From the NCBI RefSeq assembly GCF_030028105.1, contig NC_092372.1, positions 137,088,058 through 137,152,057 on the forward strand: a stretch of DNA of 64,000 nt, given 5' to 3'. The DNA is from Mobula birostris (Eukaryota). A model generated the notes under the pieces. The model saw nothing but the letters and a program-made list of their open reading frames with translations. It did not search any database and had not been told where the DNA came from. Within the stretch, counting starts at the first letter, position 1. Every line of letters starts with the position of its first letter. Below are positions 14,731 to 61,800 of the stretch, piece after piece. A program made the position numbers and the translations under genes.

Positions 14731-15933
14731 ACTCGGTCTGCGAATTGTAGCGCAAATGAAACTAATAATTTTAATTTACTGGAATAATCACAAATCCATC
14801 AATTATGGATCAAAGCAAATATTAGATTGGTACTGTTATAAAATAACTTATCCAATATTATTTATTTCAGGACAACATGTTGCCACCCAGTGGATATTCT
14901 TAAGAATTGCAATTTTCATTTCTACATTGATAGTTCCCAAATCGGAAAGTGAAACACGACCATTTATTCTGGCCATGTGACAGCAATATCAGATGAGGGA
15001 GTAGAGTTTAGCCAGGATATCAGGGCATTTCTTTCTTCTTTCTCATGTTTAGATTCATCACAATAGGTAGATGGGGATCAATTTATTTTCAAAGGGCAGT
15101 TGTTTTTTTTGCAAATTATTCTGCACAATTTTACAATGAACATAATGATCCACTTCTGACTACATAGCACATTAGGGAACTCTCATCCACTGCCACTGTA
15201 TATCATGAATAATAACTTCCCAAAATGTGGCTGCAAAATATAAGCTTTTATACCTGTAACAGTTCCTCAGCACAAATATTAAATATTTGAGGACTGTAAT
15301 ATCTTTCTAAATACCATATTTTCATTTGTCCATTTCAACATCTAAAGTGGGAAATCCTTCTATGCCATAAAGAAAAGGCATATATAGCATGCTCGTAATC
15401 TTAACTACTAGTTTAAATATTCACTCCTCCATCTGCACACCAAGGCTGCTCAGTGTACCATCTATAAAATGTACCGTTATTGCTTTCCTAGGCTACTCTA
15501 ATGGTACCTGCAATCTCAACCATCAAGAAGGATCAAGCTTGTTGAAATACCGCCATTTGTACGTTCGTCTTCAAATCACACACCATCCTTACTTGTAAAT
15601 ATTGTGACACTCTGGGGGGGGGGATGCTGGGTCAACAGCCCACCCCTACATTTCTAATGACCGGTACCGTTTATTGTTCTTGTGTTAAAATGCTTTTGTG
15701 GGATTATGGTGGGAAATTCCAGTTCATTAATGGTTACATTTTAGCTTGGGTTACACAGTTATTTGCGTCTGTATTTATGGGTCACCCTAACCAGGGTGTG
15801 TGATGGTCACCTTCCCTGTGTGATTTTAAAAATGCAAACAACAGGAATTCTGCAGATGCTGGAAATTCAAGCAACACACATAAAAGTTGCTGGTGAACGC
15901 AGCAGGCCAGGCAGCATCTATAGGAAAAGGTGC

Positions 15934-15969
15934 AGTCGACGTTTCAGGCCGAGACCCTTCGTCAGGACT
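15934..15969 (-). ncRNA. Minimal hammerhead ribozyme, core intact
   Basis: Reverse complement AGTC CTGACGA AGGGTCTCGGCCT GAAA CGTC GACT. Confidence 0.7.
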
Positions 15970-16678
15970 AACTGAAGGAAGAGCGAATAAGGGATTTGAA
16001 AGTTGGAGGGGGAAGGGGAGATCCAAAATGATAAGAGAAGACAGGAGGGGGAGGGATGGAGCCAAGAGCTGGACAGATGATTGGCAAAAGGGATACGAGA
16101 GGATCATGGGTCAGGAGGTCCGGGAAGAAAGGCAGGCGGGGGGGGGGAACCCAGAGGATGGGCAAGGGGTATATTCAGAGGGACAGAGGGAGAAAAAGGA
16201 GAGTAGAGAGGAAGAGAGTGGCCACACATTTTAATTCCACATCCCATTCCCATTCTGACATGTCTGTCCACGGCCTCCTCTACTGTAAAGATGAAGCCAC
16301 ACTCAGGTTGGAGGAACAACACCTTATATTCCGTCTGGGTAGCCTCCAACCTGATGGCATGAACATTGACTTCTCTAACTTCCGCTAAGGCCCCACCTCC
16401 CCCTCGTACCCCATCTGTTACTTATTTTTATACATACATTCTTTCACTCTCCTTTTTCTCCCTCTGTCCCTCTGAATATACCCCTTGCCCATCCTCTGGG
16501 TTCCCCCCACCCCTTGTCTTTCTTCCCGGACCCCCTGTCCCATGATCCTCTCGTATCCCTTTTCCCTATCACCCATCCAGCTCTTGGCTCCATCCCTCCC
16601 CCTCCTGTCTTCTCCTATCACTTGGATCTCCCCCTCCCCCTCCAACTTTCAAATCCCTTACTCACTCTTCCTTCAGTT

Positions 16679-16714
16679 AGTCCTGATGAAGGGTCTTGGC
16701 CTGAAACGTCAACT
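16679..16714 (+). ncRNA. Minimal hammerhead ribozyme, core intact, stem I mismatch
   Basis: AGTC CTGATGA AGGGTCTTGGCCT GAAA CGTC AACT. Confidence 0.6.
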
Positions 16715-19139: not shown

Positions 19140-19940
19140 GCATAGATGTTTGGCAAAACAGTCTCCCAATCTACGTTGGGGTTTCATCGATACACAAGAA
19201 GCCATAGCGGGAGCACCAAACACAGTATATAACCCCCAACAGACTCACAGGTGAAGTGTCGCCTCACCTGGAAAGACTGTTTGGGGCCATGAATGGTAGT
19301 GATGGAGGAGGTATAGGGGAAGGTATAGCAGTTGTTCCACTTGCAAGGATAAGTGCCAGGAGGGAGATCAGTGGGAAGGACGAATGGACAAGGGAGTTGT
19401 GTAGGGAGCAATCCCTGTGGAAAGCAGGAAGTGTGGGGGGGTGGCGGCAGGAGGGAAAGATGTGTTTGGTGGTGGGATCCAGTTGGAGCTGGTGGACATT
19501 TTGGAGAATTATGTGCTGGACGCAGAGGCTGGTGGGGTGGTAGGTGAGGACAAGAGGAACCCTATCCCTGGTAGCGTGGCAGGAGGATGGGGTAAGAGCA
19601 GACATGTGTGAAATGGAAGAGGGCTGGTTGAGGGCAGTGTTGACGGTGGAGGAAGGGAAGCCCCTTTCTTTGAAAAAGCAGGACATCTGCTTCGTTCTAG
19701 AATGAAAAGCCTCATCCTGAGAGCAGATGCAGTGGAGACAGAGGAATTGAGAAAAGGAGTAGCGTTTTTACAAGTAGCAGGGAGGAATGAGGTATAGTCC
19801 AGGTAGCTGTGGGAGCTGATTGGATTATAATAGACATAGGTGGATAAGCTGTCTCCGGAGACAGAGGCAGTGAGATCGAGAAAGGGAAGGGAAGAGTCAG
19901 AAGTGGACCAGTTGAATTTGAGGGCAGGGTGGAAGAATTT
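19140..19940 (-). mobile_element. Penelope-like element (RT thumb to GIY-YIG)
   Basis: FFKERGFP, DRVPLVLTYHP, GPKQSFQVRRHFTCES motifs. Confidence 0.85.
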
Positions 19941-20918
19941 CTAAACCTAGATGAAATTTTAAACAAAAATCACATTTCTTTCCCTCAGTCTCCTCTGTAT
20001 TTCTGACTTCTGCCTAACTCACATAGTAATAAATAGTTCATTAACTCAAAGACCAAAAGTAATACTGTTTATTTTGGCAGTTTCCAAAAGTGCTGCAGTA
20101 AACACACTTTTGCAATGGTAAAACTAATAAGGTTTTTGATTTTTTTGGGTGTAATCATTAAACTTAGCTGTCTGAAACTCTGGAACCACTGAAGCTTTAA
20201 TTTTCAATTACATGAATGGGAATTGTCTACTTTTTCTGAACAAGTGTTCCTTGTTAATTTACTAAGGAGGAAAGATCATGGAAGAAAAGGAAGGAGGTGG
20301 GGAACCAAAAGAGGTTCAGGGCACCATTCATAGCCCCAAACAGTCCTTCCAAGTGAGACAACACTTCGCACGAGAGCTTGTTAGGGTCAACTATTGTGGT
20401 GGTTCTCCTGGTGCGACCTCTTCTACATTGATAAGACCAAATACAGACTGGGGGACTGGTTCGTTGAGCATATTCACTCTGTCTGCCACAAAAGGTAGGA
20501 TCTCCTGGTGGCTACCCATTTTAATTCAATTTCTGACATCATGAGGCCACATTCAGATTAGAAGAGCCTCATATTTCTTCTATCTTTCAATAATTACTAA
20601 CCCCTCATCCCTTGTCTCTTTTTCCATTCCCTATTTTGGTTACCCTCTCACTCCTTCTCTTATCATCTGCCCATCATCTCCCTCTGGATCCCTTCCTCCT
20701 TCCTTTTCTTCCATGGCCCATTGTCCTTTCCTATTAGAATCCTTCTTTTCAGCCCTGTTCCTCTTCTACCTATCACACCTCAGCTCCTTACTTCATCTCA
20801 TCTCTCCCACCCACCCAACCTTCCCCCTCACCCGGTCTCCCCCATCACCTGCCAGTTTATACTTCCTCCCCTCCTCCCACCTTCTTATCCTGGCTTCTCC
20901 CCACTTTCTTCCCAGTCC

Positions 20919-21144
20919 TTTTTTTTAAGCGTGTTGTATCGTCTTGTCTGGCACGTGGTGTCAGGATTAACTGGGTCACATTATGAACGTTCCTGACTCG
21001 ACCCTTGTATTTTTTACGAGGCCAAGTGGCTAGCTCGACACTCAACCCAGCAAGGGCGTGCTCAGGGGTGGCCTGACCTGGATTTGATCTCGGGAACCTT
21101 CACTCCGGAGTCCAGCGCTGATCTCACTGCGCCACCAACCGGCC
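20919..21144 (-). mobile_element. tRNA-derived SINE
   Basis: Antisense A-box TGGCGCAGTGA, B-box-like GAGATCAAATCC, poly-A tail; ccagtcct duplicated on both sides. Confidence 0.75.
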
Positions 21145-21192
21145 ACTTTCCAGTCCTGATGAAGGGACTTAGCCCAAAACGTTGACTCTTTA

Positions 21193-21712
21193 AGCCTGAT
21201 TTATACTTCTGCGTCAACATGTCGCCATAAGTACTGCGTCGCCGCAAACCCTACGCAAAGCCAACGCAGAACCTTACGCGAAAGCCTGCGTTGCTGCGAA
21301 GCGCACCTCTCCCAAAATGTAACCGCGCGTCACAGCAACGCAGAACGCAACAGCTGTGATTGGTCCGCTTGGTAGCATCACATTTCCTCCTACGCTGCAG
21401 TAGCTTCCCATTGGGCAACTGAAGGGCAGGGAAGGAACTCTGGCTGCAATGCTTTCCATAAAGCTTTACAGACCTCGAAATTATGGAGGACATATTTTGC
21501 TTTTACAAAAACAAACGCTCGCTTCTTGTTTACCCCAAGAAAGACTACCATGACCATGAAGCCTTGCGTCGGCAGCTGTGTGCGCATGCGCGACGTGCGC
21601 GATTTGCAGAGCAACGCAGACACACCAACGCACAAGTATAAATGCTCACAACGCACGTAGATCACTTGCATAGGTTACGGCGTCGAGTTAACGCAGAAGT
21701 ATAGATCAGGCT
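21193..21712. mobile_element. PIF/Harbinger-type MITE
   Basis: TIR AGCCTGAT(T/C)TATACTTCTGCGT; TTA TSD at 21190-92 and 21713-15; CpG-rich, suggesting a young insertion. Confidence 0.85.
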
Positions 21713-22389
21713 TTATTCTTGACCTCCAGCATTTTGCGTGTGTTACATTGAAACATCAGCTATTTATTCCCCCTCATAGATGGTGCCTAACTTGCTGAGT
21801 TCTTTCAGCATTTTGTGAGTGTTCCTTATGGAATGGAATGTAGCATTGATCTTAACAACATGATTACTGGATAAATTACATTGGCCAGTGAAGGAACATG
21901 GCTTCCTGCTAATTCCAGCACCTGAGCAATCGAATGTGCAAGTGCATGGATCCAAGAATACTTCCCTTATAGATAAATGGTAGTAACATTCTAAAAGAAA
22001 TACTGAAATAATAACCTGAAAATGGAACTTCTTCAATCCACAATGTATCATCAGCTGGTATGGAGCAGTGCGGTCCTCTATAAGGCTGTGTCTCAATTTA
22101 TAAGTACATCACAAACTTTGGAAGAATGGAATTTACTGTCAGTGTAGAAAGTAGCGACCTTACTGGCTATGAATTACTTATGTACTGGCGAGCAACAATC
22201 AGCGTCCAGCTCCTCTACACTCAGGCTTAGCCTCTTCTATGGTTCATGAACAATGTGGCAAGACATGCAAAAGTTATTATGAAATCATCATCTTTAATAA
22301 TTCACACAGATTGGTAAAACTATTTACTGTCAATTATAACTTGCATTCTTAACTGTTAAAAATGTTTTAAGTCATTTAACAACTCCCAC

Positions 22390-22701: not shown

Positions 22702-22810
22702 CTGTAAGAGAGAGAAATTTATATCTTAAAAATGAAACTAGGAAAAATGAATTAACTATTTCTAGGTTCAAGGTAAATACTCGACAAGTCCCATCATCAG
22801 GACTGGAAAG

Positions 22811-22932
22811 TGGCCGGTTGGTGGCGCAGTGAGATCAGCAACGAACTCCAGAGTGAAGGTTCCCGAGTTCGAATCCAGGTCAGGCCACCCCTGAGCACAC
22901 TTTCCATCCTTGCCAGGTTGAGTGTCGAGCTA
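22811..22932 (+). mobile_element. 5' part of the same tRNA-derived SINE
   Basis: A-box TGGCGCAGTGA and B-box GAGTTCGAATCC; reverse complement of 21031-21144. Confidence 0.8.
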
Positions 22933-30143: not shown

Positions 30144-32185
30144 CTACAATAAGCAAATGGCAACAGAATGATTCAATATAAGATGAATGAAACAGAATTA
30201 TTTTACCCACTAACAAACAGACAAGCAGACAATTTGGAATTCAACTCACAGCCCAAGAAGATGATAGAGACAGATAAATTTAAGACAGAGATAAGAAAGG
30301 ATTTCTTCTCTCTGAAGGCCGTGAATCCTTGAAATGCTTCTGTGGAAGCTGAAATGAAAATTTGCTAGATACAGCTGCTAGGAATCTGAAATAAAAGTAG
30401 AAAGTGTTGCAAGCATTCAGAAAAGCAACAGTAAATGTACCTTTCAGGTTAAAGTCCCATCATCAAAACTGATAAGATACAGATAAGATAGGGTAGTAGG
30501 ATTGGATAGATAAAAGGAATTTTCCTAATTAGGCAAGGAAAGGGCTTCTACAGTGATAAACTACAGAGATTTTTGGTGAGATACTAAAGCAATTAGACAG
30601 GAACTAAAACTATGAGCTGAGGGCAGTCAGAGAGTAAGAATGCAATGCTGGATAAAGATTAAATAGAAAACAATCCTAATCAATCTTACTGTAAAGATGA
30701 TAAAATCCCATCTACCTCATAGAAATACATTATGGCCTAAGCTTAAAAGAGTCGTAGAAAGACATATTTGGCCTAACTAGAACAATTCTTTGATCCTTTA
30801 TCAATTATTTTACTTATTTTGGTTGTTGGTAACAATCACTTTATTTTGGGAGCAAATGAGATGGACAAACTTATGGTCTCCTTTGCTACAAAATAATTCT
30901 AGCACCTATGCAGGATGTAATGCACATTTTGCGCATGGAGATGACTTTAGGGACATTTCTGACTAATGTGCTAAATCCTTCAGATTTGGATTTGAGAACA
31001 AAGTCAATTACTTCAAAATTATTACGTGCTTTGAGGACAATTACCCACAGTGATAAAGTTCAAAAACATCTCTTCTAAGATCACCTACAAGAGCCTTACT
31101 GCTTTCAACCTTATCTGAGAATTTGCCTATTTTACTATTGTGATTTTACGGTAATTTAGAAATATATATCCAACTTCTATTTAAGAGAAATGATCAATTA
31201 TCACCCAGTTTTCAAATACATTGATTCAGTCACAAAATGGAGTATTTTTCAAGTATTCACTAGATTGAGCAATGCAACACACATTGAAGAATATAAGTGT
31301 ATAAGATTAACATTTCTGCATTCAACCAATTCACATTCTTTCAATTCAATTGTTCCTCTAAATTCATATAATTTATTTAAAAGATAACTCTAAATAGTTG
31401 TGCTTAAAATTCTTCTGATTACTGTACAAATTCATATCATCACAGAAAATATCTTCACCGAACTGCAGCAGTTAATCCTTCTGAAGATGACCCACCTATT
31501 CAAGGACGACATTGAAGAATTCAAGTGAAGACACTAAATAGACTAAAGAACTTGGTATGGGTTGTTTCCAGCTGAGAAGAAAATCTATTATTGAAATTTA
31601 TATTTTGCTTACCATGGGATTCCTCTATGAATAAAAAATTAAGAATAAAAATACAAAATAAAAGTTTTGTTATTTTAAAATCATCTATATTTTTCAGTAT
31701 GTACATGGTGAATTACAATCCATGTGTAATTATTTTAAAAGAGCCAGACTTTGGTATGCACTGATTATAGCCTATAATGCCATTAAAAAAAAATTACAAC
31801 TCATATAGCAAGCTCAGACATTTTCAGGGTACTCACTGATGCTCACTGATCTCGGTATATTATACTCCAGAAGGCTGTGATAACTCACTGAAAGAAATAT
31901 TCTGCATTTCGAAGATTAGCTATATAATCGAATGCTTCAGAAGGTGTATCCTGTTTTATAGTATTAACAAGGCATATAGTACTAGCTTTGCCATCCTGAG
32001 TAGTACAAAATGTAGGTCAATGCACAAAAAGTACAACAGAAAGAAGCCAAGAAAGAGAGGTTGGCTGTCTGTCTGCTAATTAACAAAACACATCTCTGAT
32101 CCAGCTAACAGTCAAAAAGATGATAAAGAAAGCAGTACTTACAAGTGATAACCGGAAGTATGTTTTCAGATTATCACAAACTCTA

Positions 32186-32944: not shown

Positions 32945-33959
32945 CTATTTGCAATTCCAATAAACATAAAATTTATATTAAATTTTAAACCAGATATTTT
33001 ATTTTTAGCACATTTCCTTAATCACTCTCTTCTTTAGTACTTCAGTTTTACTTTTCTTTAAATCAAATTGATACAAAAATGAAGTTTAATGTCACTATTT
33101 ATTTCTGATTCTTGTTTATTATTTAAAATATATGGAAAAATAACACCACAATCTATAATTATACATCACAATAGTAAATGTAATTCTTGGATTACAAGCT
33201 CATAAAACTTCTATTTACATTTAGTTTATGGTTGTTTCCAATTGAAAACCTATCAAAAGAAAGTAACAACATTTAATTGGTGCCCATTTGCAACACTCTC
33301 TCGTGAATTTTGTTCAATAAATAATTCATTAAAATGAAATCACAATTATATCTGAATTTTCTGCATACTGATTTATTTAAAGCTTAATAATTCAGTTTTG
33401 CTTCTCCATGTACAATATCAGGATGTCATTAGTATTATATTAAACAGCAAAATATGAGAGGAATTCCTTTCAACAAACCTTACTTCCAGTTGCCATATGT
33501 TTATCATTGTACGGTCAAAAATTTCCAATTACTGTATAATGGAGATACAAATGTGAAATTAAGGTATTGCAGCAGCTGTACTGATACTGCAGTACTTCAA
33601 TTGTGACTTGGCTGGTAAGCAAATGAGCCAAAACGTTCCACAATTGAATCTCACTCCAAATAATTGAGCATATAACCTAAGTTGGCATTTCAAAGCAGCA
33701 TTTCAAGGTACTGTGTTCAAAAATGTTATTAAACCAAGATCTCACTGGCATCACATATATAAAAGGTGCCATTTTATTATTTGAAGAAGAAAATATTGCT
33801 GCTCTAACATTACACTAATACTTAGCTCATAACCAAGCCATTGCAAACAATGGTCCTGATGAAGGGTCTCGGCACAAAACGTCAACTGTTTATTTCCACC
33901 TACATTGCGTGTATCGCTCTAGGTTTCCAGCATCTGCAGTACCTCTTGTACTAAGATGT

Positions 33960-35600
33960 CCCTGATGATCCAGATGGTGGAAGCAAAGGAAGACAATAAT
34001 CAAGATCTCGAGAAACCACATGGGAAACCACATCTGAAGCTCATCTTGACCACTTTGAACCTCACCAAAAGTCAGCCCTAAAAGTTTTCTCCTCTCAGTA
34101 TCCCACCTTGTTTAAACTACAACTTGGGTGTACCAACTTGAGCAAGCACACTATCCATGTAAAAGATGATCAACCCATTCATCAGAGATGACACAGAGTG
34201 CCTGAGCATCTTGTCAGTGCCTTGAAGGCAGAGATAAGGACCATGTTGGAACTGGGTGTCATTAAGCCATCGAACAGTGACCAGTACAGTCTAGTAGTTA
34301 ATGTGCCTAAACCTGATGGTTCCTTGAGGGTCTGTATTGACTTTAGAAAAATCAATGTGATCTCCAAGTTTGATGCTTATCCTTTGCCACGGATAGATGA
34401 GCAACTGGACAGGTTGGGACAAGCTCAGCATATCACTACACTGGATTTATGTAAAGATTACCGGCAAGATGGGCTTGCGTGGAATGGGCTGCTGGCGATG
34501 GTGGTGGAGGCGGATATGATTGAGTCTTTTAAGAGACTCCTGGATAGGTACATGAAGCTCAGAAAAATAGAGGGCTATGGGGAACCCTAGGTAATTTCTA
34601 AGGTAAAGACATGTTCGGCACAGCTTTATGGGCCGAAGGGCCTGTATTGTCCTGTAGGTTTTCTATTTTTCTAAGATCCACTGGAGGAAAAGCCTAAAGA
34701 ATATGCTGCTTTCCAGACCCCACTTGACCTTTTCCATTTCACGGTCATGTCATTTGGCCTGAATGAAGCTTCAGTGACATTTCAGCACCTCATGGACTGT
34801 GTATTTAGGGGATGTGAAGAGTTCAGCATAACATACCTCGATCATGTGGTGATTTTCAGCACAAGTTGAGAAGACCATCTCTAGGATATCAATCAGGTCC
34901 TGGGACAGCTAGCCTCAGCAAGCCTTACAGTCAACCTCCAGAAGTGTAAGTAGGCGAAGATAGAGACCTGGTACTTGGGATACCAGCTTGGGAATGGGCT
35001 GATACACCCTCAAGTGGACAAGGTACAAGCAATTCGGAACAGCCTCCGCCCTCAGGTCTTTTCTTGGACTGGGTTCACACCACGGTTTGCTGAAGTGACA
35101 ACTTCTCTGACCAGTTTGTGCTTAAAGTCTGCAGAGGAGTGTGCACTGGCTTTTGTAAATTTAAAGGGGGCACTCTGTGAAGAACTGGTATTCATTAGTC
35201 CTGATTTCAACAAGCCCTTCCTGGTGCAAATGGCCATTTATGGAATAGGGATAGGTGCTGTCTTGTCCCAAAGGAGAAGAGGGCAAAGAGAGGCCTGTCT
35301 TATACCTGAGTAGGAAGCTGCTACCCAGGAAATCTCAGTATTTGACTGTTGAGAAAGAGGCTCTGGCTCTTATTGAGATCTAGACAGTCTGTCCTATTAC
35401 CTCCTTGTCTGGGAGTTTGTTCTGGACTCAGACCACCGTGCCTTGACCTGGATCCACACCAGGAAAGATCCAAATGCTCACATTACCAGATAGCATCTAG
35501 CCCTGCAACCCTTCCACTTCACAATCCGTCACACAGGAGCAGCCAGAACATTGCAGTGGAAGTTTACCACAACTTGGGTAAACTAGAAGAAAGAAGTAGG
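33960..35600 (+). mobile_element. Gypsy pol fragment (RT-RNaseH) with CR1 3' end inserted at about 34469-34675
   Basis: KPDGSLRVCIDFRKIN..DAYPLPRIDE, YLDH, PDFNKPFLVQ..GIGAVLSQ. Confidence 0.85.
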
Positions 35601-36099: not shown

Positions 36100-39000
36100 C
36101 GCATTCCAAAGAATGGACTTAAAGGTGAGGTAAGGATCCAATCTTGCATGGGTGGAGGAACAGCAGATGCGGCTGGCTCATCCAGAGGTGTGTCAATATG
36201 CTCATTGTCATGTTGTGATGCCAGAGATGCCAGCAGAATCCTCCAAATCCTGTTGGGTTGGTTTAAGATGATCTACCTAAGTACATTAAGGTTTACCCCT
36301 CTTATCTGTGATAAAAATCTTTTCTCCCCATTCCAAAACACGGAACGGGTCATCATAAAGGGGCCTTGATGTTGGTGTGTATCATGGCAGACGAAAAAAA
36401 CCGAGGCAGAATGTAGGTCAACAGGAACCCGAGAGTGTGGTATGCCATCATGAGAGGTAGGAATAGGTGAAGAGGAATTGAATTTCCTGAGGAGGGTGGA
36501 ACATTGTTGAAAGACCAACCAGACACTCGTGGCATCTGGAATGAAACCACCAAGCACTAGTATACCAACTCAGCCATGGACGACCCATAACAGACAATCA
36601 TGCCAACCCTCATCAGTTGGGGAAGACTTCAAAGCAGCCTTTAAGGAGTGGTGAAACCGCTAGCATAAGCCATTGGATAGTGGGTGATACGCTGCGGTAT
36701 GATGTAGCCTAACGCCGAGGTTCTGGGCTATCAGAGCCCGGACGTATGAAATGAATTGAGGACCGCATTCAGAGGAGATATCAGACGGAGTGATAAACCG
36801 AGCAACCCAGTGCTGATAAACACCTGAGCCCTATCTGCGGCCATTGTCAATAGTTGGGGGACGACCTCTGGTCACTAGGCAGTACAGTCCACCATGGTAA
36901 GGAGTTGAGTGAAACTGCAGGAGGGGAGAAGAGGACCAACAAGGTCTTCATTAATGTGGACAAACCGTTGCTCAGGGACCTCAAATGACACCTGGGCATG
37001 ACAGTTAATTTATCCGGCTGAGACTTTACACAGGCTGCACTCTAATCATGCCCGTCTTTTCAAGGTCCGTGCCACACAAACTTTAGCGCTAACAGTTTCT
37101 GTGAGGCCTTCAGGCCCAGATGGGAGAGGCAACGTATGGTGTTAAAAACGGTCTGCCTCCAGTCTGCAGGCATTATGGGGCAAGGGTGACTGGTTGAGAC
37201 ATTGCACAGGAAAGAAACCCGAGCTTTTTTGAACTTAATGTCAGCCAAGCACAGGCCTGTGACTGTTGTTCAGTAAGCCTGGACCTTTGGATCAGTAGCT
37301 TGGTCGAATGCTATGCCGACATAGTCAACCCTTGTATGTGTGGCCTCAGAAGCTGGCTATGGGAGGCAATCAGCCATGGCATTATTTTTCCCCTTGATAT
37401 GTTGTATATCAGCTGTGCACTCTGATATGTAGGCCAGGTGGCTTTGCTGCCATTGCAGACCAAGGGTCTGACATTTAGAGCATCACATGCACAAGGGGTT
37501 TGTGGTCAATGAACACTGTGAAATGGCGGACAGCAAGATGGAGACCAAGAAGCTCACGGTCAAACGTGCTGTACTTCCTTACGGGGGATGGAGCTGCCAG
37601 TTGAAGAAGGTGAGCAGCTACCACACACCTCTGACCAACTGCTTATACACAGTACCCACAGAATAGTCTAAAGCATCAGTAGTTACGGCTATGGGTACAC
37701 TGGGCAGGTGCGTCAGTCGGGTCGTGTTTGAAAGAGCTCATTTGGTAGCATCAAATACCCTGGTCACGTCTGCTGACCAGTCCTGCAGATGATTAGAGGT
37801 ATTGCCTTTTAGTGCACCATACTGGGAAACATAAGTACAGCAGCTCGCAGAATGAAGAGGTGATAGAAATTCACCATGCCTAAAGACTCCTATAGTTTTT
37901 TAGTAGTGTGGGGTGGTGGAAATCCATAATAGTGGTTAGTTTTTATGGGAGGGTTTTTATCCAGCCAAACAAAAAAAATCTAAATCTTTTAATACAGAAT
38001 CAATCAGCCATTGAAAAGTCTGTGCTGCATTTTTCAACCTAAATAGCATGCACAGAAACCCAAAGAGGCCAAACAGGGTTGTCACAGCCATTTTGGGAAC
38101 GTCCTCCGAGCAACAGGCACCTGATGGTAGCCCCTAATTTGATCGAAATTGGAAAAAAATAATTTTCCAGCAAAACATGCAGTAAAGTTCTGGATGTGTG
38201 GGACCAGATAATGATCAGGGATGGTGGCCTCGTTAAGTTGTTGGTAATTGCCACATGGGCGGCAATCACATCAGACTTAGGGTTCATATGGAGGGGCAAA
38301 GTACAGGGGCTATTCAACCAGCATACAGTGCCAAGTCTTTCCATGTTGGCAAACTCAGCTTTCGCATTTGCTATGTTTTCTGGGTCCAGTCTATGCAAGT
38401 GGGCATGGAATGGTGGTCTAGTTGTAGAAATGTGGTGGTCCACCCCATGTTTTGTGACTGCAATGGAGAATGTCGGCTTGGTGAGGTTTGGGAATTCACG
38501 CCGCAGTCGAGCAAACTCACATGCGTCAGTGCTTGCGCTTTACACAACCATTATGGAGAACTTGTTAGGGGAGCAGGGTAACAACCCAAAGTCCTTGATA
38601 TCCACAAGCCAGCAGTTCTTAAGAACGACTAATAGTCCTTGAGCACACAGGAAATCTGCACCAAGCATAGGTCTAGCCACTTTAGCCAGGACAATGTCCC
38701 AAGTGTAATGTTGCCCACTGAAGCAGAGCGTCACACGCCATGTCCCGTAGGTCTGGATCATACTGCCATTGGAGGCCTCCAGCAGCTTTGCCACTCTTTG
38801 CCTTCTCATAATAGCTGATGCTTGAGAACACGTGTCACACAAGAAGCGTCACCCTGAAAGAGTGTTCATAATAAACACAAGCATCCCAGGCAGTTGGAAT
38901 CCACGGTGTTCACAAACCTCTGTTGTCTCGATGTGCTGGCACTGTTGAAGCTGCAAGGTGGTTAGCACTTTCTAGCATTCATGCCAAAGCGAGCATGATA

Positions 39001-39776
39001 AAAACATAGGCCCGGCAGCATCTGTTTTGCAGCTATGGGTCCCCTTATGTTGGAGGCTGTGCTGACTGGGCTTATTGAGGTAGAGAAAGGAGAAGGAATG
39101 ATGCACTGCTGCCTAGCTGAGATTAGACTATCCTCCATTTTAGTAAGCTCCCTATAGTACTTCATGGGTGCATTAGCGAGGGGTATGTGAACTTGATCGG
39201 GCATTTGCTGCTTGAAGAGTTCTTTCAAAATAAAACAAGGATGGTGATTTCCCAAGAGAGACAGCATGTGGTCCATTAGCTCTGACAGCTTAGCATCAGT
39301 GAGGCTGAGCTTGGAGAGCAACTGTTTGACGCACTCAGACTCCAGTAGTCCAACAGTAGATTCACCTCTCTCTCAGCCATGGAGTCACTAAGCAACAATA
39401 CCTCGTAGAAATATTTCATGTTGTCTGTGAAGATTTCTCGCAATACGAATTGGGCCCCGGCTTGTGCAAACCAAGCAATGGCATTTTGCTCATAAAACTC
39501 CAGCAGTTTCAAAGCGACAGCATTGGCCAGCATGTTCAATAACCCTGGAATCATCCTAGAGCATCGGGGTCACGAATGTAGGTTTTCACAATTAAAACGA
39601 CAAGGGTTTTATGTTTCAAAAAAGCTGTAGCACCTCATTTATTGAACACCAAAAACTGAACATAAGCATGGTAACAGTCCTTTATTTAAATATGTCATCA
39701 TGTTAAACCAGCCCCTCAAAGTGAAACTCCAACTCAATGTTGTGTTTGTGATTTATGTACAATTCCACCAATTACA
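36100..39776 (-). mobile_element. Gypsy LTR retrotransposon, degraded gag-pol
   Basis: Putative LTR 39577-39776; PBS-like T(C)GTGACCCCGA near 39564-39575; gag (LKLLEFY..WFAQAGAQF), protease (LGADFL), RT, integrase and GPF motifs. Confidence 0.82.
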
Positions 39777-40429: not shown

Positions 40430-43400
40430 ATGTTAACTGTCCTGTGCTATCACCAGTGGGATCATCAGTTGATCTGCCACCTGTCTTCAGGAGTTTCAGC
40501 CCGCTTATGATCAAGACTCCCTCCAGGTGGTAGGCCAGCAGTACTAAAGCACCAGCTCCCACTGGTGAGCTTAAAAACTTGGCATCTGCCTCGATCAGAG
40601 TTGTTGGTCGTTTCCATCCAACAAATAGTCTACTCTTCAGGTGTCTATGCAACTACTGAAGGGCTTGCAAAAGATAGATACACTGTCCGACTATCTGCCC
40701 CTCTGGACGTACTTGGTCCACACCCATGATGATCATGTCTCTGCTGCCTCAGCTACAGCCCTGCTGGTTGACTTGATCTCTCTGCTGGTGAAGCCAAGGT
40801 CACGCAGTCACTTCTGGAAAGTGAACACAATAAAGCCACAGCAACCTACTTCGATTGGACAGCATGAGACCTTCCACCCTCCGTCTCTGCACTCTCATCT
40901 TAATTCTGCATACTTGGTTAACTTGCACTCATGGGCTTCATCGATGTTGTCTTCCCAGGTGAGTTCATCAGTAACCACTTCTCTACTGGTGTCAGACCAT
41001 ACGATTATATCTGTACACAATGTGGTGAAAGCTATTTGCTCCGGGAAGCTGCCTTTCCCATCCAGGTCGGCCTTGGCACACCAATCATTGGCTGAAGAAA
41101 GTATGCTTGATCATGGGCTTGCGCTGTACACCCTTGACTTGGAGCCTTCTTTCACAAACAATATGTGATGTTCTGTGCAGCATGGGACATAAGATAAGTT
41201 GTGCTGCAGTACTCCCTGCTCAACCACTTCTGTTACAACTTTGAGAACATTGTTGTGTCTCCAAGTGTACATGCCGCTGGAAAGATTGACTCTACATGCA
41301 CTCAAAATATGTTGAAGTGTTCCCTTCTCGCCACAAGCAGCACACCTGTCTTATCTTCATACCAGTTGCTGAAGTTGGCAAGTGTTAGGATCAGGTCATA
41401 CACTGCTCTGCACAGGAAAGAAATACGGAGCGGTTCCATCTTCCACAGAACATTCCAAGATAGATGCTGTTGTTCAACACTTTCCCACCAGATCCAAGCC
41501 CTTTGTTTGGCCAGGCCAGCTGTTTTAGCTAACCTCTTCTCGTCTTCTACCTCTCGTATTTCTTGTGTTACAAACTCACGGTGCTCCTTACCTGTAGAAG
41601 ATGACCACCACTTGTGGGTTGTCCATCCAAGTCCCTGGTGCCGTAGCTGGATAGCCCCAACCGTCTCCTTGGTGCTTCAATCTAGACTCTGCCTCATCAA
41701 CTGCTACATGGGCTGACCACTTCCTGCCTGATCCCACATCCGGCTGGGTGTTCTTGATGACAGGGTCTTTTGAGTCTCGAAGCATCAAGAATGATCTCAC
41801 CTTGACTACCTTGACCTCTTCAACAAGGGATTGTACTGGGATGGTAAGCTTTGTCTGGCTACTGTAACACTGGTGAGGCTGCTCGGTACTCCAAACCACT
41901 TCTTCGCATACCTATTGATCTTCCGTTCCATTGCCTCAACATGGGACATTGCCACTTCATAGACAGTTAGTGGCCACATTATCTGTGGCATCAATCCATA
42001 CTGCAAGCACCACAGCTTCAACTTGCCAGGCAAGCCACACTTGTCAACAGACATCAGACCTCTGCTGATCTGTTCTCCTGTCTCTTGAACTCTCTTGGTG
42101 TCGCTCAGCTCCTCTGTGTACCATCGCCCGAGGCTCTTAACTGGTTGGTCCTGAATGGATGGAATCTCCTCTCCACAAAGGGTGAAATGAAAGTCAACCA
42201 GCTTTCCTCTCATAAGAACAAGGCTTCTTGACTTCTTGGTCTTGAACTTCATTCTTCCCCAATCCATTAGCTCCTCGAGTCTAGATAGTACACTCTCCAC
42301 TGCCTCTGTGCTAGGATCCAAAAGGGTGAGATCGTCCAAGAATGCTTGTATTGGTGGTAACTCCCCTCCGCCATCAAGTGCGACACCTGGTCCCACTGAT
42401 TCTGCAGCCCTCACAATGACCTCCATGGATAACACAAAAAGGATGGGTGAAATCGCACAACCCCTTTGGGATTCCAACATCCAAGCTCTGCCACCTACTT
42501 GTAAACTGCTGAGTGGAAAACCTCATCCGGAAATCGCTGTAGTACTGCATAACAAAGTTCTTCACCTTAGCAGGAGTCCATAGGAATTCCATCGTAAACT
42601 CAATCAGGGCATGGGGAACAGGACCATACGCATTTGCCAGATCAAGCCAAACTACAGCCAGATTTCTTCTCAACCTTTTCGACTCCTGGATGGTATGCCA
42701 TATCATGCTAGTATGTTCAAGGCATCCCGGGAAGCCTGGTATTCCTGCCTTCTGCGTAGATGTATTTACCAATCCATTCTCTATCACAAATAAAGATATT
42801 CTTTCTGCTAGAATGCCAAACATAATCTTCCCCTCTACATTCAGGAGTGAAATTGATTGGAACTAATTCAATGTAGTAGAATTCTCTTCTTTCGGGATGT
42901 ATACTCCTTCAGCCTCACTCCATAACAAAGGAACAACACCTTGTCTCCATACCACCTTTAACACCTTTAACAATCTGCACAAGTATTTCCTCAGCTCTTC
43001 ACACTCCTTGAACACCTTATACGGCACTCCATTAGGTCTTGGCACTGAACCTGACCTTGCCTTTCAGATGAACCGTTCGACTTCTGCCAGTATGGATTCT
43101 GACAGATCGAACTTCACTCCTGGCTCCGGTAGGCTTCACAAGCCCTGAAATGTCAAGCAAAGGAGCCTCCCGCTGTTCGTTAGAGTAAGCGCTTGCCAGG
43201 TGATCCTCAAGTTCTTGTTGAGAGATGTTAAGCTGCCCGCTCTTATTTTGTTCAAACAATTTCTTTGTGAACTGGTGAAGGTTCTCAAAGAACAACTTTC
43301 TTGCCTTCTCTCCCTTCTTTCTCTTTTTACGTTGTGACTCTGCACAACGGAGTGATGCCAACTTTAATCCAAAATGCTCTTGGAAATCAGCAAGCCCTGG

Positions 43401-44100
43401 TTTTTCACCCTCACTTGCTACCTTCCACCTCTGTCTCAACGATCTAAACTCTCTCCTCAACCTACTAATCTCCTTCTGGTGCCTGCTTGGTGTCTGTGTA
43501 GGCTTTGCTTTCTTCAATTCAACCAAACCAAACCGGTACTTTCCAACATCATAAATCATATCACCCATCACTTCCAACTTCTCCTTTGATGTCCCCATGA
43601 AAGTGTGCTCCAACATCATACTGATATCCTCATCAAACACACGCCAAGTCTTCTCATCTGTCATTGCTGGCCACTTGACCTTCCTCTTCTTTTCTACCTC
43701 CTCACCACCGCCATCATGCGAAGGATCTACCTGGGTACTGTGGTCTGAAACCTGACTTGGGTTATCTCTCATCTAACCTGGAGTATGATGACTCTCTCCA
43801 GAGCAAATCGCTGTGGCTTGTAAATCAGTGGTTGAAAACTGTGCTTGGTGAAGTAATTCCATCTTCATCTACTGGGATGGAATAGCACTTCAACTTTGCT
43901 TGGTGGACTCATAAACCTTTAATGCTGGAAAACACTCTCCCACACCAACACATTGGACACTCAAAGCCTCTTATCCCAGCTCTTGGTCGTAGTCATTCCC
44001 TGTAATTAACCGTATCCGTCCGATTGGGTCTATCATTCTCTCTGCCTCTCGGAGGACCCTGAGTGTATGTTTCTCCGTGTAAACTAGAAGCTTCAAGTGG
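40430..44100 (-). mobile_element. Hero/R2-like (REL endonuclease) non-LTR retrotransposon, near full length, frameshifted
   Basis: GCLEH, WLDLANAYG.VPH, GCAISP, AFLDDLT RT motifs; CAACGEKGTLQHILSAC + RHN zinc finger; ELT-WED..EAHE..K..KY, EVG REL motifs. Confidence 0.85.
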
Positions 44101-44733: not shown

Positions 44734-45290
44734 CAAGGACAACAAAAATCTACAGATGCTGGAAATCCAAACAACACACACAAAATGCTGAAAGAACTCA
44801 GCAGGCCAGGTAGCAGCTATGGAAAAGAGCAAACAGTCGACGTTTCAGGCCGAGACACTTCATCAGGACTGGAAAAAAGATCAGAAGTGAGAGCAAGAAG
44901 GTGGGGGGAGGGGTGGAAGAATTACAAGGTGGCAGGTGATACGCGAAACCAGCAGAAGAGGAGGGATGGAGTAAAGAGCCGGGAAGTTGATCGGTGAAAG
45001 AGGTAAAGGGCTGGAGAAGTGGGAATCTGACAGGAGGGGACAGAAGACCATAGAAGAAAGGGAAGGGGGAGGAGCACCAGAGGGAGGTGCTGGGCAGATA
45101 AGGAGAGAGGACAAAAGAGGGAAATGGGAATTGGAATGGTGAAGGTGGGGGTCAAATACCAGAAGTTCGAGAAAACGATGTTCATGCTATCAGATTGGAG
45201 GCTACCCAGATGGAACCTGAGCATGGCCTCATCACAGCAGTAGAAGAGGCCATGGACTGACATGCCGGAATGAGTGGTGCTGCCACACCA
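44734..45290 (-). mobile_element. Penelope-like 3' end with 14-bp TSD
   Basis: ctag(c/t)tgagtggca at 44720-33 and 45291-304; GSLQSDSMN and hammerhead tail. Confidence 0.8.
44835..44870 (-). ncRNA. Minimal hammerhead ribozyme, core intact, weakened stem II
   Basis: Reverse complement AGTC CTGATGA AGTGTCTCGGCCT GAAA CGTC GACT. Confidence 0.55.
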
Positions 45291-49254: not shown

Positions 49255-50597
49255 GACCTGGGGATCCATGTCGAATTGCATCTCACATAAAAAATTGTCT
49301 ATGATAAGCCTACGGACTCTCACAGCTACCTGGACTATTCCTCTTCCCACCTTTTCTCTTGCAAAAGTGCCATCCCCTTCTCGTAATTCCTCCATCTCCG
49401 CCGCATCTGCTCTCAGGATGAGGCTTTTCATTCCAGGACGAAGGAGATGTCTTCCTTTTTTAAAGAAAGAGGATCCCCTTCCTCCACCATCAACTCTGCT
49501 CTCAAACACATCTCTTTCATTTCACGCACATCTGCTCTCACCCCATCCTCCCGCCACCCCACTAGGAATAGGGTTCCCCTTGTCCTAACCTACCACCCCA
49601 CCAGCCTCCGGGTCTAACATATAATTCTCCGTAACTTCCACCACCTCCAATGGGATCCTACCACCAAGTACATCTTTCCCTCCCCCCCACCCCGCTTTCC
49701 ACAGGGATCGCTCCCTATGTGACTCCTTTGTCCATTCGTCCCCCCCATCCCTTCCCACTGATCTCTCTCCTGGCACTTATCCTTGTAAGTGGAACAAGTG
49801 CTACACATGCCCTTACACTTACTCCCTCACCACCATTCAGGGCCCCAGACAGTCCTTCCAGGTGAGGAGACACTTCACCTGTGAGTCTTATTGTGTCTGG
49901 TGCTCCCGGTGCAGCCTTCTATATATTGGGGAGACCCGACCCAGACTGGGAGATCGTTTTGCTGAAAACCTACGCTCTGTTCACCACAGAAAGCAAGATC
50001 TCCCAGTGGCCACGTATATTAATTCCACGTCCCATTCCCATTCTGATATGTCTATCCATGGCCTCATCTACTGTCAAGATAAAGCCACACTCAGGTTGGA
50101 GGAAAAACACCTTATATTCCATCCGGGTAGCCTCCAACCTGATGGCATGAATATTGATTTCTCTAACTTCTGCTAATGTCCCTCCTCCCCTTCAAACCCC
50201 ATCCCTTAGTAATATATTTTTTATGTATTTCCCCCCTTTTCTTCTCTTTTTTTCTCCCTCTGTCCCTCTCACTACAACTCCTTGCCTGTTCTACACCCTC
50301 CGGGCTCCCCTCCCCTCTTCTCTTTCTCCCCAGGCTTCCCGTCCCATGATCTTCTCCCTTCTCCAGCCTGGTATCCTTTTTGCCAATCAACTTTCCAGAT
50401 CTGAGATCCACCCCTCTCCTCCTGTCTTCTCCTATCATTTCGGATCTCCCCCTCACCCTCCCACTTTCAAATCTCTTACTATCTCTTCCTTCAGTTAGTC
50501 CTGACGAAGGGTCTCGGTCCGAAACGTCGACTGTACCTCTTCCTAGAGATGCTGCCTGGCCTGCTGAGTTCACCAGCATTTTTGTGTGTGTTGCTCA
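49255..50597 (+). mobile_element. Penelope-like element (longest copy): RT thumb, GIY-YIG endonuclease, terminal repeat with hammerhead
   Basis: YCVWCSRCSLLYIGETRPRLGDRFAENLRSV GIY-YIG motif; hammerhead at 50497-50532. Confidence 0.9.
50497..50532 (+). ncRNA. Minimal type I hammerhead ribozyme, core intact
   Basis: AGTC CTGACGA A GGGT-CTCG-GTCC GAAA CG TC GACT: stem I AGTC/GACT, conserved CUGANGA and GAAA, GUC cleavage triplet. Confidence 0.75.
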
Positions 50598-51572
50598 TAT
50601 AAAAAATGTAGGGATGGGACAATGCAAATTTTAAAGGTCCTTATCAACCATTAGCAATTAATTAACAATCTCTAATTACAATTAACAGTGCAACACATAC
50701 AGTAAATTGGAGGAATTTACTAGGTTAAACAGCCTCTGTGGTGAGAAATACACAGTTGATGTTCGGACCGAGACTGTTCATCTGTACGGTAAAGGAAGGG
50801 GAAAGAAGCCAGAATAAGAAGCTGGCATGAGGGGAAAGAGTACAAGTTGGCAGGTGATAGGTGAAACCAGCGGAGGGGGATGAAGTATGCATACTATATT
50901 GAGTTAGGATTCAATATGCAGTATTGTTAAGCTTTTGACATTGCATTGAATCAGAATCAGGTTTATTGTCAGTGACATAAGTCGTGAAATTTGTTGTTTT
51001 TGGCAGCAGTACAAACTACTATAAGTTACAAATAAGAATAATTAATAGTGACGAAAAGGGATAGAGATGTAGTGTTCGTGGACAGTTCAGAAGTCTTATT
51101 ATTTTGTTAAATCAAAAATCTCATTGTGTGATAATGCAAGTACACAAATAAGATAAAAAGGGAAGTAATTATTGCAAATAACATAATTCTCAGAATTATT
51201 TTGGATTGATGTAACAGGTTTACGCATATAAAACAGGTTACAATTATAAGAAAAATTCCTGATTAAAATGTGCTTCATTGAATATTAATACCCCATGTAC
51301 TAGGATCTGTAAAACATGTTATGTGCATTTGTGCATATATTTGGAACTTCACTAATGTCATACATCACAAGGATTCTGTCTCTTTAAGGGGTGTTACAAA
51401 AGAAATATTTCACAATGTGAAACCTGAGATGTGTGAAATTTGAAACTGACATGATTTGCATATACCACACTTCTACGTGTGTGATCTGGCTTGCTATTGG
51501 TTATCAGGATATGTCTGTATGTTTCCTTTCTCAAGCTTCACTGTTTCCACTTGAATGAATGCCAAGGAGCTT

Positions 51573-51652: not shown

Positions 51653-51875
51653 ATGATTATTACACAGCCTTTTGATTGCACTTTCTTTGTGATAGCATGC
51701 ATTTTTGTAAAATGCTGCTTTGCCTTTGACATGGGTGCAGAACAAACTAAAAATGATGCTACAGAAATATTCTACAATCTCAAGGTGCTACAGCATGAAC
51801 GTCCAAGTAATTTAACATTAAATCAGGCAAGGAATGGAGGAAGGCTACCTAACCCTTCAGACATGGATCATAAAG
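51653..51875 (+). CDS. SOSTDC1: SOSTDC1 exon 1 (signal peptide, KNDATEI, NLTLNQARNGGR)
   Basis: Hydrophobic N-terminus; KNDATE and LNQARNGGR motifs; donor AAAG|gtacag, phase 1. Confidence 0.96.
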
Positions 51876-53214
51876 GTACAGTTTGTGTGTTTTGAGAAAT
51901 ATTATCTTTGCTTTGGGAGCTTTTCCCCTATTATAGTAAGACCTAATAAATAATATGGCATTAGACATATGTATTGTAGAACTTGACTTTCTGCTAAATT
52001 AACATTTAGATTTAAGTACAAAATTCATTATTGCATTAATTATATCATTAGTAAATGTATAAAGGTGGCATTTTCATAGACAATGTGCTATTATTAAAAT
52101 ACGGATAATACATTATATTATATGTCAAAACAATGTAAAAAGATGAGAATAATTTAAATGGAAACTATGAAATAAGTAGCATGGCCATGTATAAAAAATG
52201 TTATCAAATTTCCTGAATGGACAGTCTCAAGAAAATTGCACTGATAATTATTTTGTAATCTTTATGAAGTATTGAGCTGTCTATTGATCTAAAATACATT
52301 ATTTTCACTGGGTTATTTTCATTGAGGTGCCTCACACAGCTTCTGATCATGCTTGTGAGAAGCAGGAGCACATTCTGACCAATGCTTGAAGGTTTCATTT
52401 AGCATTTGAGTGTTCAGCAAGTTTTCAATTACAGTTACTAGAATTACATGCACTATCATGTTAGCTATATTTGTAATCAACCTATCTTTGCATTGCCTTC
52501 AAAGAGACCGATAAGACATATATGGCACTGCCCTCCATTGGCAGAATTTCAGTGAATTTATTCCAGATTAAAAGTGACAATCCAATTTAGATTTGTGTGT
52601 CAATATACAGAAAAGCAAAAGGAGCAAGGTTCTTGATTAATCAACATAGCTTTCTAAATTTAATTGGCTAGTTTTTCATGGATGTGCATTTATTCAATTT
52701 GTCACCTAAACACAAATTTTTAAGAAAATGCAAATTGGAACATAAAAATTTAGCACTGAATATGTTTCTTTTGTTGCTGTGATGATTAACAAATTGAAAG
52801 AAGTTTGGAAAGCAGCAAACAAAATCAACTAATGTTTGACATTGCCCCATTTTGAAAATCAGTTAAACATTCCATAGGTATTTGGTTACAAGCTAGACTT
52901 AGTTACTGGAAGTATTATCTGAAAAATATGTTTTTGTAGTTCTAAAAAGACACACATGTTGAGCAGAACAGACATTTTTATGGATTTGATTCATGGCAAA
53001 TTTTAAAAAATGCTCTTGGCTTGATTTCATGGATAGAGAAGATGTTTAAGCTTTGAAACAGTATAATCTAATACCAAAAAATTTAAAAAAGAGTGAGAAT
53101 TTTCAAGTAAAGCAGAATTTTAAAAGGCTGATGGGGTGGGGTGATTATGAGCATCTTATTTGAGTTTTAAAAATCAATTGTATGAAAAAAATAATTTGTT
53201 TTTTTTAAATGTAG

Positions 53215-53663
53215 ATCAATCTCAAGTTGGTTGTCGTGAGCTCAGATCAACCAAATACATTTCTGATGGTCTGTGCACAAGTATCAATCCAGTGAAGGAG
53301 TTAGTGTGTGCAGGAGAGTGCTTACCTATGCCAGTGCTTCCTAACTGGATTGGAGGTTATGGCAGAAAATACTGGAGTAGAAGGAACACACAAGAGTGGC
53401 GCTGTGTGACTGACAAGACTCGCACCGAGAGAATTCAGCTCCAGTGCCAGAATGGAGGGACACGAACCTACAAAATCACTATAGTTACTTCTTGCAAGTG
53501 CAAGAGATACACACGACAGCACAATGCATCAAGCATTATCAACTTCGAGGCCACATTTCCAGCAAGCAAGAGAAGATCCAGAGGCAAAAAAAAATCCCGT
53601 AAGATTCACCAAGAGGAGATCAAACGTAAAAGAAATTGGCATGAATTGGAAGACAAACAGTGA
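53215..53663 (+). CDS. SOSTDC1: SOSTDC1 exon 2 (cystine knot; BMP/Wnt antagonist)
   Basis: gtag|AT acceptor; GCRELRSTKYISDG, ELVCAGEC, PNWIGG, CKCKRYTRQHN; spliced CDS 672 nt = 223 aa plus TGA. Confidence 0.97.
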
Positions 53664-57700: not shown

Positions 57701-57714
57701 AAATACCTCATCCA

Positions 57715-57817
57715 ACACACACAAAATGCTGCCTGGACTGCTATGTTCCACCAGTATTTTGCGTGTGTTGCTTGAATTTCCAGCATCTGCAGATTTTCTT
57801 GTGTTTGCGTTTTTAAG
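57715..57817 (+). mobile_element. Short Penelope tail with inverted 5' tip and 12-bp TSD
   Basis: atacctcatcca at 57703-14 and 57818-29. Confidence 0.75.
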
Positions 57818-58129
57818 ATACCTCATCCACCTGTTTGACACGTACCCATCCGCACCAGCTTCCGAAGTTTAGATGCTGTAACTCCACGGAGTACAGGATA
57901 GCTAGTGTGGCCCCTTTAAAGAGTCAGGACAGTCCCACTAATTGGCAATCATGTTTTGGGTGCCAAGTATTGAGGGCTTAAGAAGTACCTGAACTGAGGT
58001 TCAGTTCTCAATCATAAGCCCATTTGTGATTTTGTCTAGTGTCAGTTTTGCGCTCAGATTCTCGATCAAGTTTCAAACCATGTCTCAATCCTAGCCTCAG
58101 ACACTCCAGCATTTGGGTCCAAGCCATTG

Positions 58130-61239: not shown

Positions 61240-61800
61240 TTGGGGGACCAATTCATCCACCAAAAGTGGAAATTCCTGGTGGCCAAATATTTTAACTTCC
61301 ATTCCCATTCTCGTTCTGACATGTCGGTCTTGGCTTCCTCTTGTGCTAAGATGAGGCCACCCTCAGAGTGAAGGAGCAACACCTTATATTCCATCTGGGT
61401 AGCCTCCAACCTGATGGCATGAACATTGATTTCTCCCACCAGTAATTTATTTTCCTTCCCCCTCCCCTTTTTTCTATTCCCGACTCTGGCCTTTTATTTC
61501 TTCTCAGCTGCCTATCACTATGATCTGGGTCCCCTCCACCTTCCCTTTTTCCTATGGTCCACTTGCCTCTCCTATCAGATTCCTTCTTCTCCAGCCCTTT
61601 ACCTTTCCCACCCACCTGGCTTCACCTATCACTTTCCAGTTAGCCTCCTTTCCCTCCCCCAGCTTTTTATTCTGGCACTTTCACTCTTCCTGTACAATCC
61701 TGAAGATGGGACTCAACTCAAAATATCAACTGTTTATTCACTTCCATAGATGCTGCCTGGCCTGCAGAGTCCCTCCAGCATTTTGTGTGTGTTGCTCTAC
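61240..61800 (+). mobile_element. Penelope-like 3' end, degraded hammerhead
   Basis: EQHLIFHLGSLQPDGMN then pyrimidine-rich spacer and terminal repeat. Confidence 0.8.

Follow-up and report, generated by a model that had tools for sequence, protein, structure and literature searches.

The 64,000-nucleotide stretch of Mobula birostris DNA analyzed here (the window; NC_092372.1, positions 137,088,058 to 137,152,057) carries, at 49296-50595, a 5'-truncated and frameshifted Neptune-like Penelope element. The SOSTDC1a gene follows (51653-53663, forward strand); it has two coding exons, exon 1 beginning at 51653, and the element ends approximately 1.06 kb upstream of its ATG, on the same strand. 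The element opens with a broken Penelope-like ORF (49296-50176, forward strand; tblastn E 1.7e-106 to the family protein P0004), in which a reverse transcriptase (RT) thumb (49297-49689) is succeeded by a frameshift, a CX4CX2C linker plus GIY-YIG endonuclease (49685-50173), and a stop codon (50174-50176). The thumb frame harbors two in-frame stops, and two conserved His positions are changed. Downstream lie a pyrimidine-rich 3' UTR, part of the pseudo-LTR, that diverges between subfamilies (50177-50495, forward strand), a hammerhead motif (50496-50533, forward strand), and a conserved 62-nucleotide 3' end (50534-50595, forward strand). Target-site duplications of 14 bp, with one mismatch between them, flank the insertion at 49282-49295 and 50594-50607. 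Their score is 12, compared to a best of 9 among 300 random position pairs, with the boundaries chosen by us from the ends of homology.

An earlier note, made from the sequence alone, had called the element Penelope-like, and the RT thumb, Cys linker, and GIY-YIG remnant found upstream of the motif bear this out. Pfam found no family in the endonuclease remnant, and the Penelope identity of the remnant therefore rests on homologs. Specifically, tblastn with ray Penelope proteins spans 49297-50170, and the best protein matches of the focal ORF are ray proteins of 65-95% identity (8 matches among 207 candidates). Full-length protein relatives are 750-950 amino acids long, match at 39-47% identity, and contain Penelope RT, thumb, linker, and endonuclease. 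The family proteins P0001-P0006 each consist of a single ORF in which an RT is followed by a C-terminal GIY-YIG endonuclease bearing a CCHH motif; the three Cys of the linker, the GIY-YIG residues, and the catalytic Arg, Glu, and Asn are invariant in the protein alignment. A CX2-5CxxC linker between RT and endonuclease defines Neptune or Nematis (PMC8557442), and CX4CX2C in the window ORF, by this linker definition, places the element with one or the other. P0004 is 40% identical to the metagenome relative L022, whose motif is letter-identical to the Acropora row named Neptune in Table S1 of PMC4209133. That the host is an elasmobranch, also claimed earlier, is supported by the SOSTDC1a exon: its identity reaches 100% with a ray cluster of 19 members and 88% with the nearest shark, which makes the host a ray. 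The window contains another broken copy of the Penelope ORF, running from the RT end to the endonuclease (19107-19958, reverse strand), and neither a 3' UTR nor a motif was found beside it.

The focal motif, 50497-50532 on the forward strand, has the letters previously described and constitutes a complete type I minimal hammerhead: CUGANGA followed by an A, stem II, and GAAA-CG-UC. With up to three mismatches allowed, the 36-nucleotide pattern matches the window five times and 100 shuffles not once. The arms of helix I occupy 50496-50500 and 50529-50533, C3 is at 50501, the extra A at 50508, stem II at 50509-50520, GAAA at 50521-50524, and the palindrome at 50524-50527; the cut is predicted between 50528 and 50529. 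No change is present at any core position (C3-U4-G5-A6-N7-G8-A9, G12-A13-A14-A15.1, U16.1, H17). The motif lies in the sense orientation after the endonuclease, approximately 320 nucleotides past the ORF stop (C3 is 325 nucleotides after 50176). Two helix descriptions require adjustment. AGTC and GACT do pair as stem I, and the helix can extend past the 4 bp attributed to it to 5 bp, with U.G or C-G as the fifth pair. Of the proposed 4-bp stem II, three pairs are firm; the fourth is weak and is broken in 3 of 13 copies, and two of the four focal pairs are G.U. The G10.1-C11.1 pair is G-C in the focal copy and G.U in 4 of the 13 rows of the window alignment. One unpaired nucleotide separates A9 from G10.1 (A, or U in three copies), matching the extra A reported earlier, and stem III is indeed reduced to the palindrome ACGU, with no helix III or loop 3.

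Such motifs have been described previously. Minimal hammerheads (min-HHRs) of Penelope-like elements (PLEs) lack helix III and loop 3, carry an extra nucleotide after A9 and palindromic positions 15.2/16.2, and reside in pseudo-LTRs; they exist as thousands of solo copies in truncated elements, the monomer is inactive, and the dimer displays low activity (Cervera and De la Peña 2014, PMC4209133). The consensus in Fig. S3 of that paper reads NNN CUGANGAH GNNNNN..NNNNNC GAAAN palindrome NUH NNN. By our own count, GAAA-CG-UH appears in 29 of the 56 rows of the figure, including fugu, lamprey, Xenopus, and snake, and no shark or ray is among the 56. The notion that the ray motif occupies an extreme of minimalism thus fails: GAAA-CG-UH is the commonest published layout, and relatives carry 35-38-nucleotide versions, compared to 36 nucleotides in the ray window. 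The claim of a dimer-type architecture is upheld by analogy, the layout being that published for PLE min-HHRs. Ray and published motifs are alike in being type I, in CUGANGA plus one nucleotide, in the G10.1 start, in GAAA-CG-UH, in a short helix I, in a U-rich 5' flank, and in a sense position after the endonuclease, and both occur mostly as solo truncated copies with nearby opposite-strand pairs (PMC4209133). The Acropora Neptune row possesses a 12-nucleotide stem II region identical to that of the ray motif. Thirteen motifs in 64 kb looks denser than the 4,000-9,000 per genome given for coelacanth and Xenopus in PMC4209133, the ray figure coming from one window with decayed copies counted. 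The small PLE hammerheads of Lünse, Weinberg and Breaker (RNA Biol 14:1499) likewise combine a short palindromic stem III with dimer cleavage, as related in PMC6765202. Our literature search found no elasmobranch account of the min-HHR motif, which does not by itself show absence from print.

The earlier note counted about 12 copies and listed 13 sites. All 13 are detected by an nhmmer profile based on 8 of the window copies (E from 1e-38 to 0.034, the two weakest at 0.008 and 0.034; the best match in five Markov controls has E 0.51). The profile adds two partial copies, one of the 3' half at 21749 and one with the tail alone at 57724. All 11 core nucleotides are kept in 4 of the 13, namely the copies at 50497, 15934, 16679, and 44835 previously listed as intact. 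The full min-HHR descriptor, which combines the core with both helices, is passed by two, 50497 and 15934 (controls: mean 0.035, maximum 1 in 200); a helix I mismatch fails 16679 and a stem II mismatch fails 44835.

Along the window, the forward-strand copy at 4867-4902 has A14>G, which corresponds to the GAGA seen there earlier, along with a broken palindrome, and sits in a truncated unit of approximately 160 bp (4843 to ~5003). An inverted insertion at 9256-9470, with a 14-bp exact flank duplication, holds two motif arms that overlap at the junction (9306-9341, reverse; 9336-9371, forward). The G5A attributed to the 9340 copy falls on this junction and is probably no point mutation. A second inverted insertion (15826-16777) carries in its left arm the copy at 15934-15969 (reverse), with core and helices intact and G10.1.U11.1, and in its right arm the copy at 16679-16714 (forward), with an intact core and a preceding ORF end from 16155. 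The copy at 21152-21187 (forward; G12>A and U17) lies within a longer copy (20323-21745) that a SINE and a MITE interrupt. At 22783-22804 (reverse), the site listed as 22795, only the 5' half of a motif is present, as part of an 88% inverted duplicate (22783-22932) of the 21031-21170 junction at 21152. An old, decayed copy occupies 30434-30470 (reverse; E 0.034), and its 3' half is out of register in the window alignment, which inflates the core changes listed for it. The profile and core comparison locate a G12>A copy at 33852-33887 (forward). The copy at 44835-44870 (reverse), from the second subfamily, follows an ORF end at 45284-45150. Facing the focal element is another old, decayed copy found with the profile (50754-50788, reverse), with U4>A and one core A lost, and a decayed copy with G12>A at 61696-61731 (forward) follows an ORF end at 61240-61439. 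Given the paired arms in the two inverted insertions and the 22795 duplicate, the 13 motifs stem from approximately 10 insertions.

The window copies are 5'-truncated at varied points, giving units of ~110 to 1300 bp, and at least five keep the ORF end, which also precedes motifs 16679, 21152, 44835, and 61698. Three inverted insertions have their own duplications: 9256-9470, 15826-16777, and 57713-57820. An optional tail of ~35-45 nucleotides is present at one end only of units; it occurs in 4867, 9340, 15934, 44835, and 57724, is missing from the focal copy, and is also evident from the loose ends of contig records behind 50578 and 50595. Target-site duplications above the control maximum flank 4 of the 9 units tested (14, 14, ~10-12, and 12-16 bp), at boundaries that we chose. 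Truncation, inverted arms, and the one-end tail agree with the structures described in PMC8557442 and PMC11167929. No full-length ray element or 5' pseudo-LTR was found within the 64-kb window.

Other mobile elements surround these copies. A tRNA-type SINE with an A- and B-box-like head (20916-21146, reverse) lies antisense right at helix I of the 21152 Penelope copy and is apparently flanked by a duplication of 12-17 bp. An inverted version of the SINE/motif junction, 88% identical, is found 1.6 kb away (22783-22932) and probably arose by local duplication. Just after the 21152 motif comes a presumably Harbinger-like MITE (21192-21713), whose 39-nucleotide terminal inverted repeats match at 85% and which is apparently flanked by a TTA duplication. 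The tail-only insertion at 57713-57820 has a 5' inversion that turns inside a self-complementary ATGCTG/CAGCAT segment and a 12-16-bp duplication. At 41300-43770 (reverse), RT fragments (Pfam RVT_1 below cut-off) belong to a broken non-LTR retrotransposon that differs in kind from the CR1/L2-like remnants. Fragments resembling Gypsy-type LTR gag, protease, RT, and integrase were recognized by eye at 17292-18972 (forward), 34192-34590 (forward), and 38039-39372 (reverse).

Signs of decay include G12>A, seen in three copies, C11.1>U, seen in at least four, and an altered palindrome CpG in several. Loss of a single CpG gives either G12>A or C11.1>U, and unselected copies are expected to show such changes. 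Among 8 non-independent window copies, the core diverges less than the tail (4/88 vs 36/303, p 0.047), and with CpG sites removed the figures are 3/72 and 31/287 (p 0.11, same 8 non-independent copies). Covariation of the helices within the window does not rise above shuffles (73-303 of 500 as high). An Rfam 15 scan of the whole window returned no matches at E<=1. For six stretches, the monomer folds do not exceed shuffles in stability (z -1.0 to +0.5), which is evidence neither way because an unstable monomer is expected for a min-HHR motif. In a nearest-neighbor model without tertiary terms, the active dimer has an energy of -9.5 kcal/mol for the focal copy and -12.9 for 15934, and the best two-strand folds reach -27.8 and -32.7 kcal/mol, respectively. 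The active dimer, approximately 18-20 kcal/mol above the two-strand minimum, is thus not the ground state in this model, a gap that would fit a need for folding help.

Related elements in metagenomes also bear on the helices. An alignment of five family proteins was used to fetch loci, and the best 80 of 345 confirmed loci were kept; 29 of these 80 are informative in that they include the endonuclease end and at least 450 nucleotides downstream. When the core alone is searched for, with no pairing rules, it appears 96-167 nucleotides after the endonuclease in 15 of the 29, compared to 0 of 36 control stretches inside the ORF. The exact core is absent from the other 14 informative loci, five of which show a damaged motif 87-379 nucleotides downstream. 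Among seven distinct sets of helix I arms, own partners pair in five, and cross-combinations pair in 0 of 34. The min-HHR descriptor yields 23 sense and 4 antisense motifs in the 80 loci, compared to 0-1 in 10 Markov controls. When 13 relative motifs are aligned with 3 window copies, the core and ACGU are invariant, and 43 cells show two-sided change, a number reached in 0 of 500 shuffles, in rows mostly pre-selected by the pairing descriptor. Compensatory change across relatives, together with the core-only search, which is unbiased in this respect, supports helices I and II at the level of sequence comparison, and by the same comparison the ray motif is the ordinary form of its clade. In relative L002, the motif occurs in both terminal repeats, at 1028 and 4094. 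The ORF can overlap the ribozyme: in L006 (323-3424), a long Penelope ORF begins at an ATG inside the core CUGAUGA, and in L009 (319-3720) the entire ribozyme is read through by the ORF. The ORF begins 50-180 nucleotides past the cut site in L014, L033, and L077. Four of the 13 window copies lack this core ATG (N7 = C), and the core-ATG frame stops within the 3' end or tail in 4867 and 15934. A more distant element (L077, position 524; L078, position 1603) has a larger variant with an 8-bp stem II and a CCGG insert that gives a 6-nucleotide palindrome. The tail pattern has no matches in viral or metagenome contigs.

Ray sequencing runs speak to abundance and to subfamilies. These runs consist of contigs, and the sampled-word share is ~0.5 in the best of them, so they may come from related species; low-share runs were not used. 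In support of the high copy number claimed earlier, two DNA runs have 94,564 and 99,698 contig records (approximately 95,000 and 100,000) on the 641 bp of 50000-50640, figures that do not count copies; the two runs that we guess to be RNA have 8,273 and 5,969. The ORF end and the motif with the tail are deeply covered and the stretch between them thinly, with a drop of ~10,000-fold at 50220-50241 relative to the motif region, and depth at the motif and tail is ~2x that at the ORF end in the DNA runs. In each of four runs, 49-461 records carry a different pyrimidine-rich sequence on the upstream side, with the changeover precisely at 50497, where helix I starts. We infer subfamilies whose UTRs differ and whose sequences coincide from helix I on, an arrangement that suggests constraint on master elements. 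Among the variant rows listed (40 of 210), a G.U pair at 10.1-11.1 accounts for 37-62% of depth at 50520 in the four runs. The focal copy, 89-92% identical to its subfamily, has a private stem II change at 50518, missing from more than 95% of depth. There is neither a depth step at the predicted cut nor any pile-up of ends in the contig records, which cannot show RNA ends.

Our preferred reading, to which we assign a probability of roughly 85%, is that the motif is a standard minimal type I hammerhead in the 3' pseudo-LTR of a ray Neptune-like Penelope element, that it likely cuts only in the tandem RNA of active masters as a slow, protein-helped dimer, and that the truncated focal copy is likely inert. 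By analogy with other Penelope elements, transcription through a tandem pLTR-ORF-pLTR unit would bring two motifs together. Helix III would form between their ACGU palindromes and helix I between the 5' arm of each motif and the 3' arm of the other, and the RNA would be cut after GUC, probably with folding aided by the element's own protein. Reverse transcription may then start at or just behind the conserved 3' end, ~65-110 nucleotides past the cut, and often stop early. Early stopping would leave every insertion with the motif and few with the ORF, which would explain the high count. Once inserted, copies would decay, with frequent changes at the C11.1-G12 CpG and at that of the palindrome. 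The focal copy is likely inert because no window motif copy has a cis partner, and its nearest same-strand motifs, 11 and 17 kb away, both carry G12>A.

The closest experimental comparison is Poseidon PAc of Anolis carolinensis (Frangieh et al. 2024, PMC11167929). Like the ray element, PAc has a pseudo-LTR hammerhead and an optional 3' tail with two end points, and, as for the focal copy, the target is AT-rich. PAc differs in belonging to another clade, Penelope/Poseidon, which lacks the Cys linker, and in having an ORF that starts inside the ribozyme. The account in PMC11167929 has the anole ribozyme cleaving only with the element's protein, and explains the tail by two internal priming sites.

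Those same anole experiments provide an argument for a different function, namely that the motif persists in masters because of its shape, or because it serves as a signal for protein binding or priming, with cleavage being rare or without a role in transposition. PAc ribozyme mutants still insert in vitro, so cleavage is not needed there, and the RNA-seq described in PMC11167929 has no ends at the cut site. Naiad elements thrive without canonical hammerheads (PMC8557442), and even dimers are weakly active in vitro (PMC4209133). The modeled distance of the active dimer from the ground state and the large share of G.U at 10.1-11.1 would also suit a structural role. We nonetheless judge that role unlikely, given that distant relatives retain every catalytic-core position, obey the NUH rule, and show compensatory changes in helix I, all of which a working ribozyme would predict, and that core mutations abolish protein-assisted cleavage of PAc (PMC11167929). 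Splicing could act on the motif in another way, if helix I contained, or directly followed, a spliceosomal 3' splice site whose use swapped the 5' arm and thereby gated the ribozyme. Drosophila virilis Penelope offers a precedent (PMC4209133), in both subfamilies helix I is preceded or opened by a pyrimidine tract and an AG, the ORF end of the second subfamily is followed by a GT, and predicted folds allow an upstream run of pyrimidines to pair with the core. This gating is quite unlikely: the AG belongs to helix I, the U-rich 5' flank is in the published consensus (PMC4209133), GTAA also equals last codon plus stop and is missing from the focal subfamily, and no GT..AG joint ends at helix I among the 15 of 154 joints listed, from contigs of the runs guessed to be RNA.

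The earlier note had also suggested a retrozyme-like, non-autonomous unit; on such a reading, the short copies would form a family that spreads through self-cleaved circular RNA. Animal non-LTR retrozymes do share with the ray copies a type I hammerhead, a likely origin in Penelope pseudo-LTRs, and dispersed monomers (PMC7229834; bioRxiv 10.64898/2026.07.22.740005), tandem retrozymes are reported from the one chondrichthyan genome screened in the latter study, and the twofold depth of motif and tail over the ORF end points the same way. But that 3' excess is already predicted by 5' truncation, and active retrozymes are defined as tandem units (bioRxiv 10.64898/2026.07.22.740005), fixed in length with a ribozyme in each, and canonical with loop-loop contacts in PMC7229834. 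The window has no tandem units with a motif (0 among 4 TRF rows), its same-strand motif neighbors lie 4.4-16.6 kb apart, and the ray copies have no fixed length, being ORF-linked truncations with a different 5' end in every copy and individual duplications; we therefore set the proposal aside as very unlikely. A bolder scheme, suggested by the abundance of the motif in rays and the uniformity of its helix I arms and palindrome, is that sense copies in host transcripts pair in trans with each other or with element RNA and, aided by Penelope protein, cut host RNAs genome-wide. Such a dispersed ribozyme network, possibly splice-gated at helix I and with intact copies, such as that upstream of SOSTDC1a, as co-opted cut points, strikes us as most unlikely. 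Co-option of the focal copy in itself, to trim RNA upstream of SOSTDC1a, is hardly credible. The copy is one of only two passing the full descriptor and lies on the same strand near the ATG at 51653, but such closeness is expected at one motif per ~5 kb, cis partners are lacking, the stem II change is private, and at 89-92% identity to its subfamily the copy's intactness needs no selection.

Here, the earlier identification of the motif is correct but ordinary, as the motif itself is already published. What is new is at most a host record: a ray joins the hosts of a motif that was described in 2014 and whose published alignment (PMC4209133) includes no member of this lineage. The value lies in the family: it is a very abundant vertebrate family whose subfamilies coincide in sequence from helix I on, which makes it good material for a genome-wide selection test or for end-mapping.
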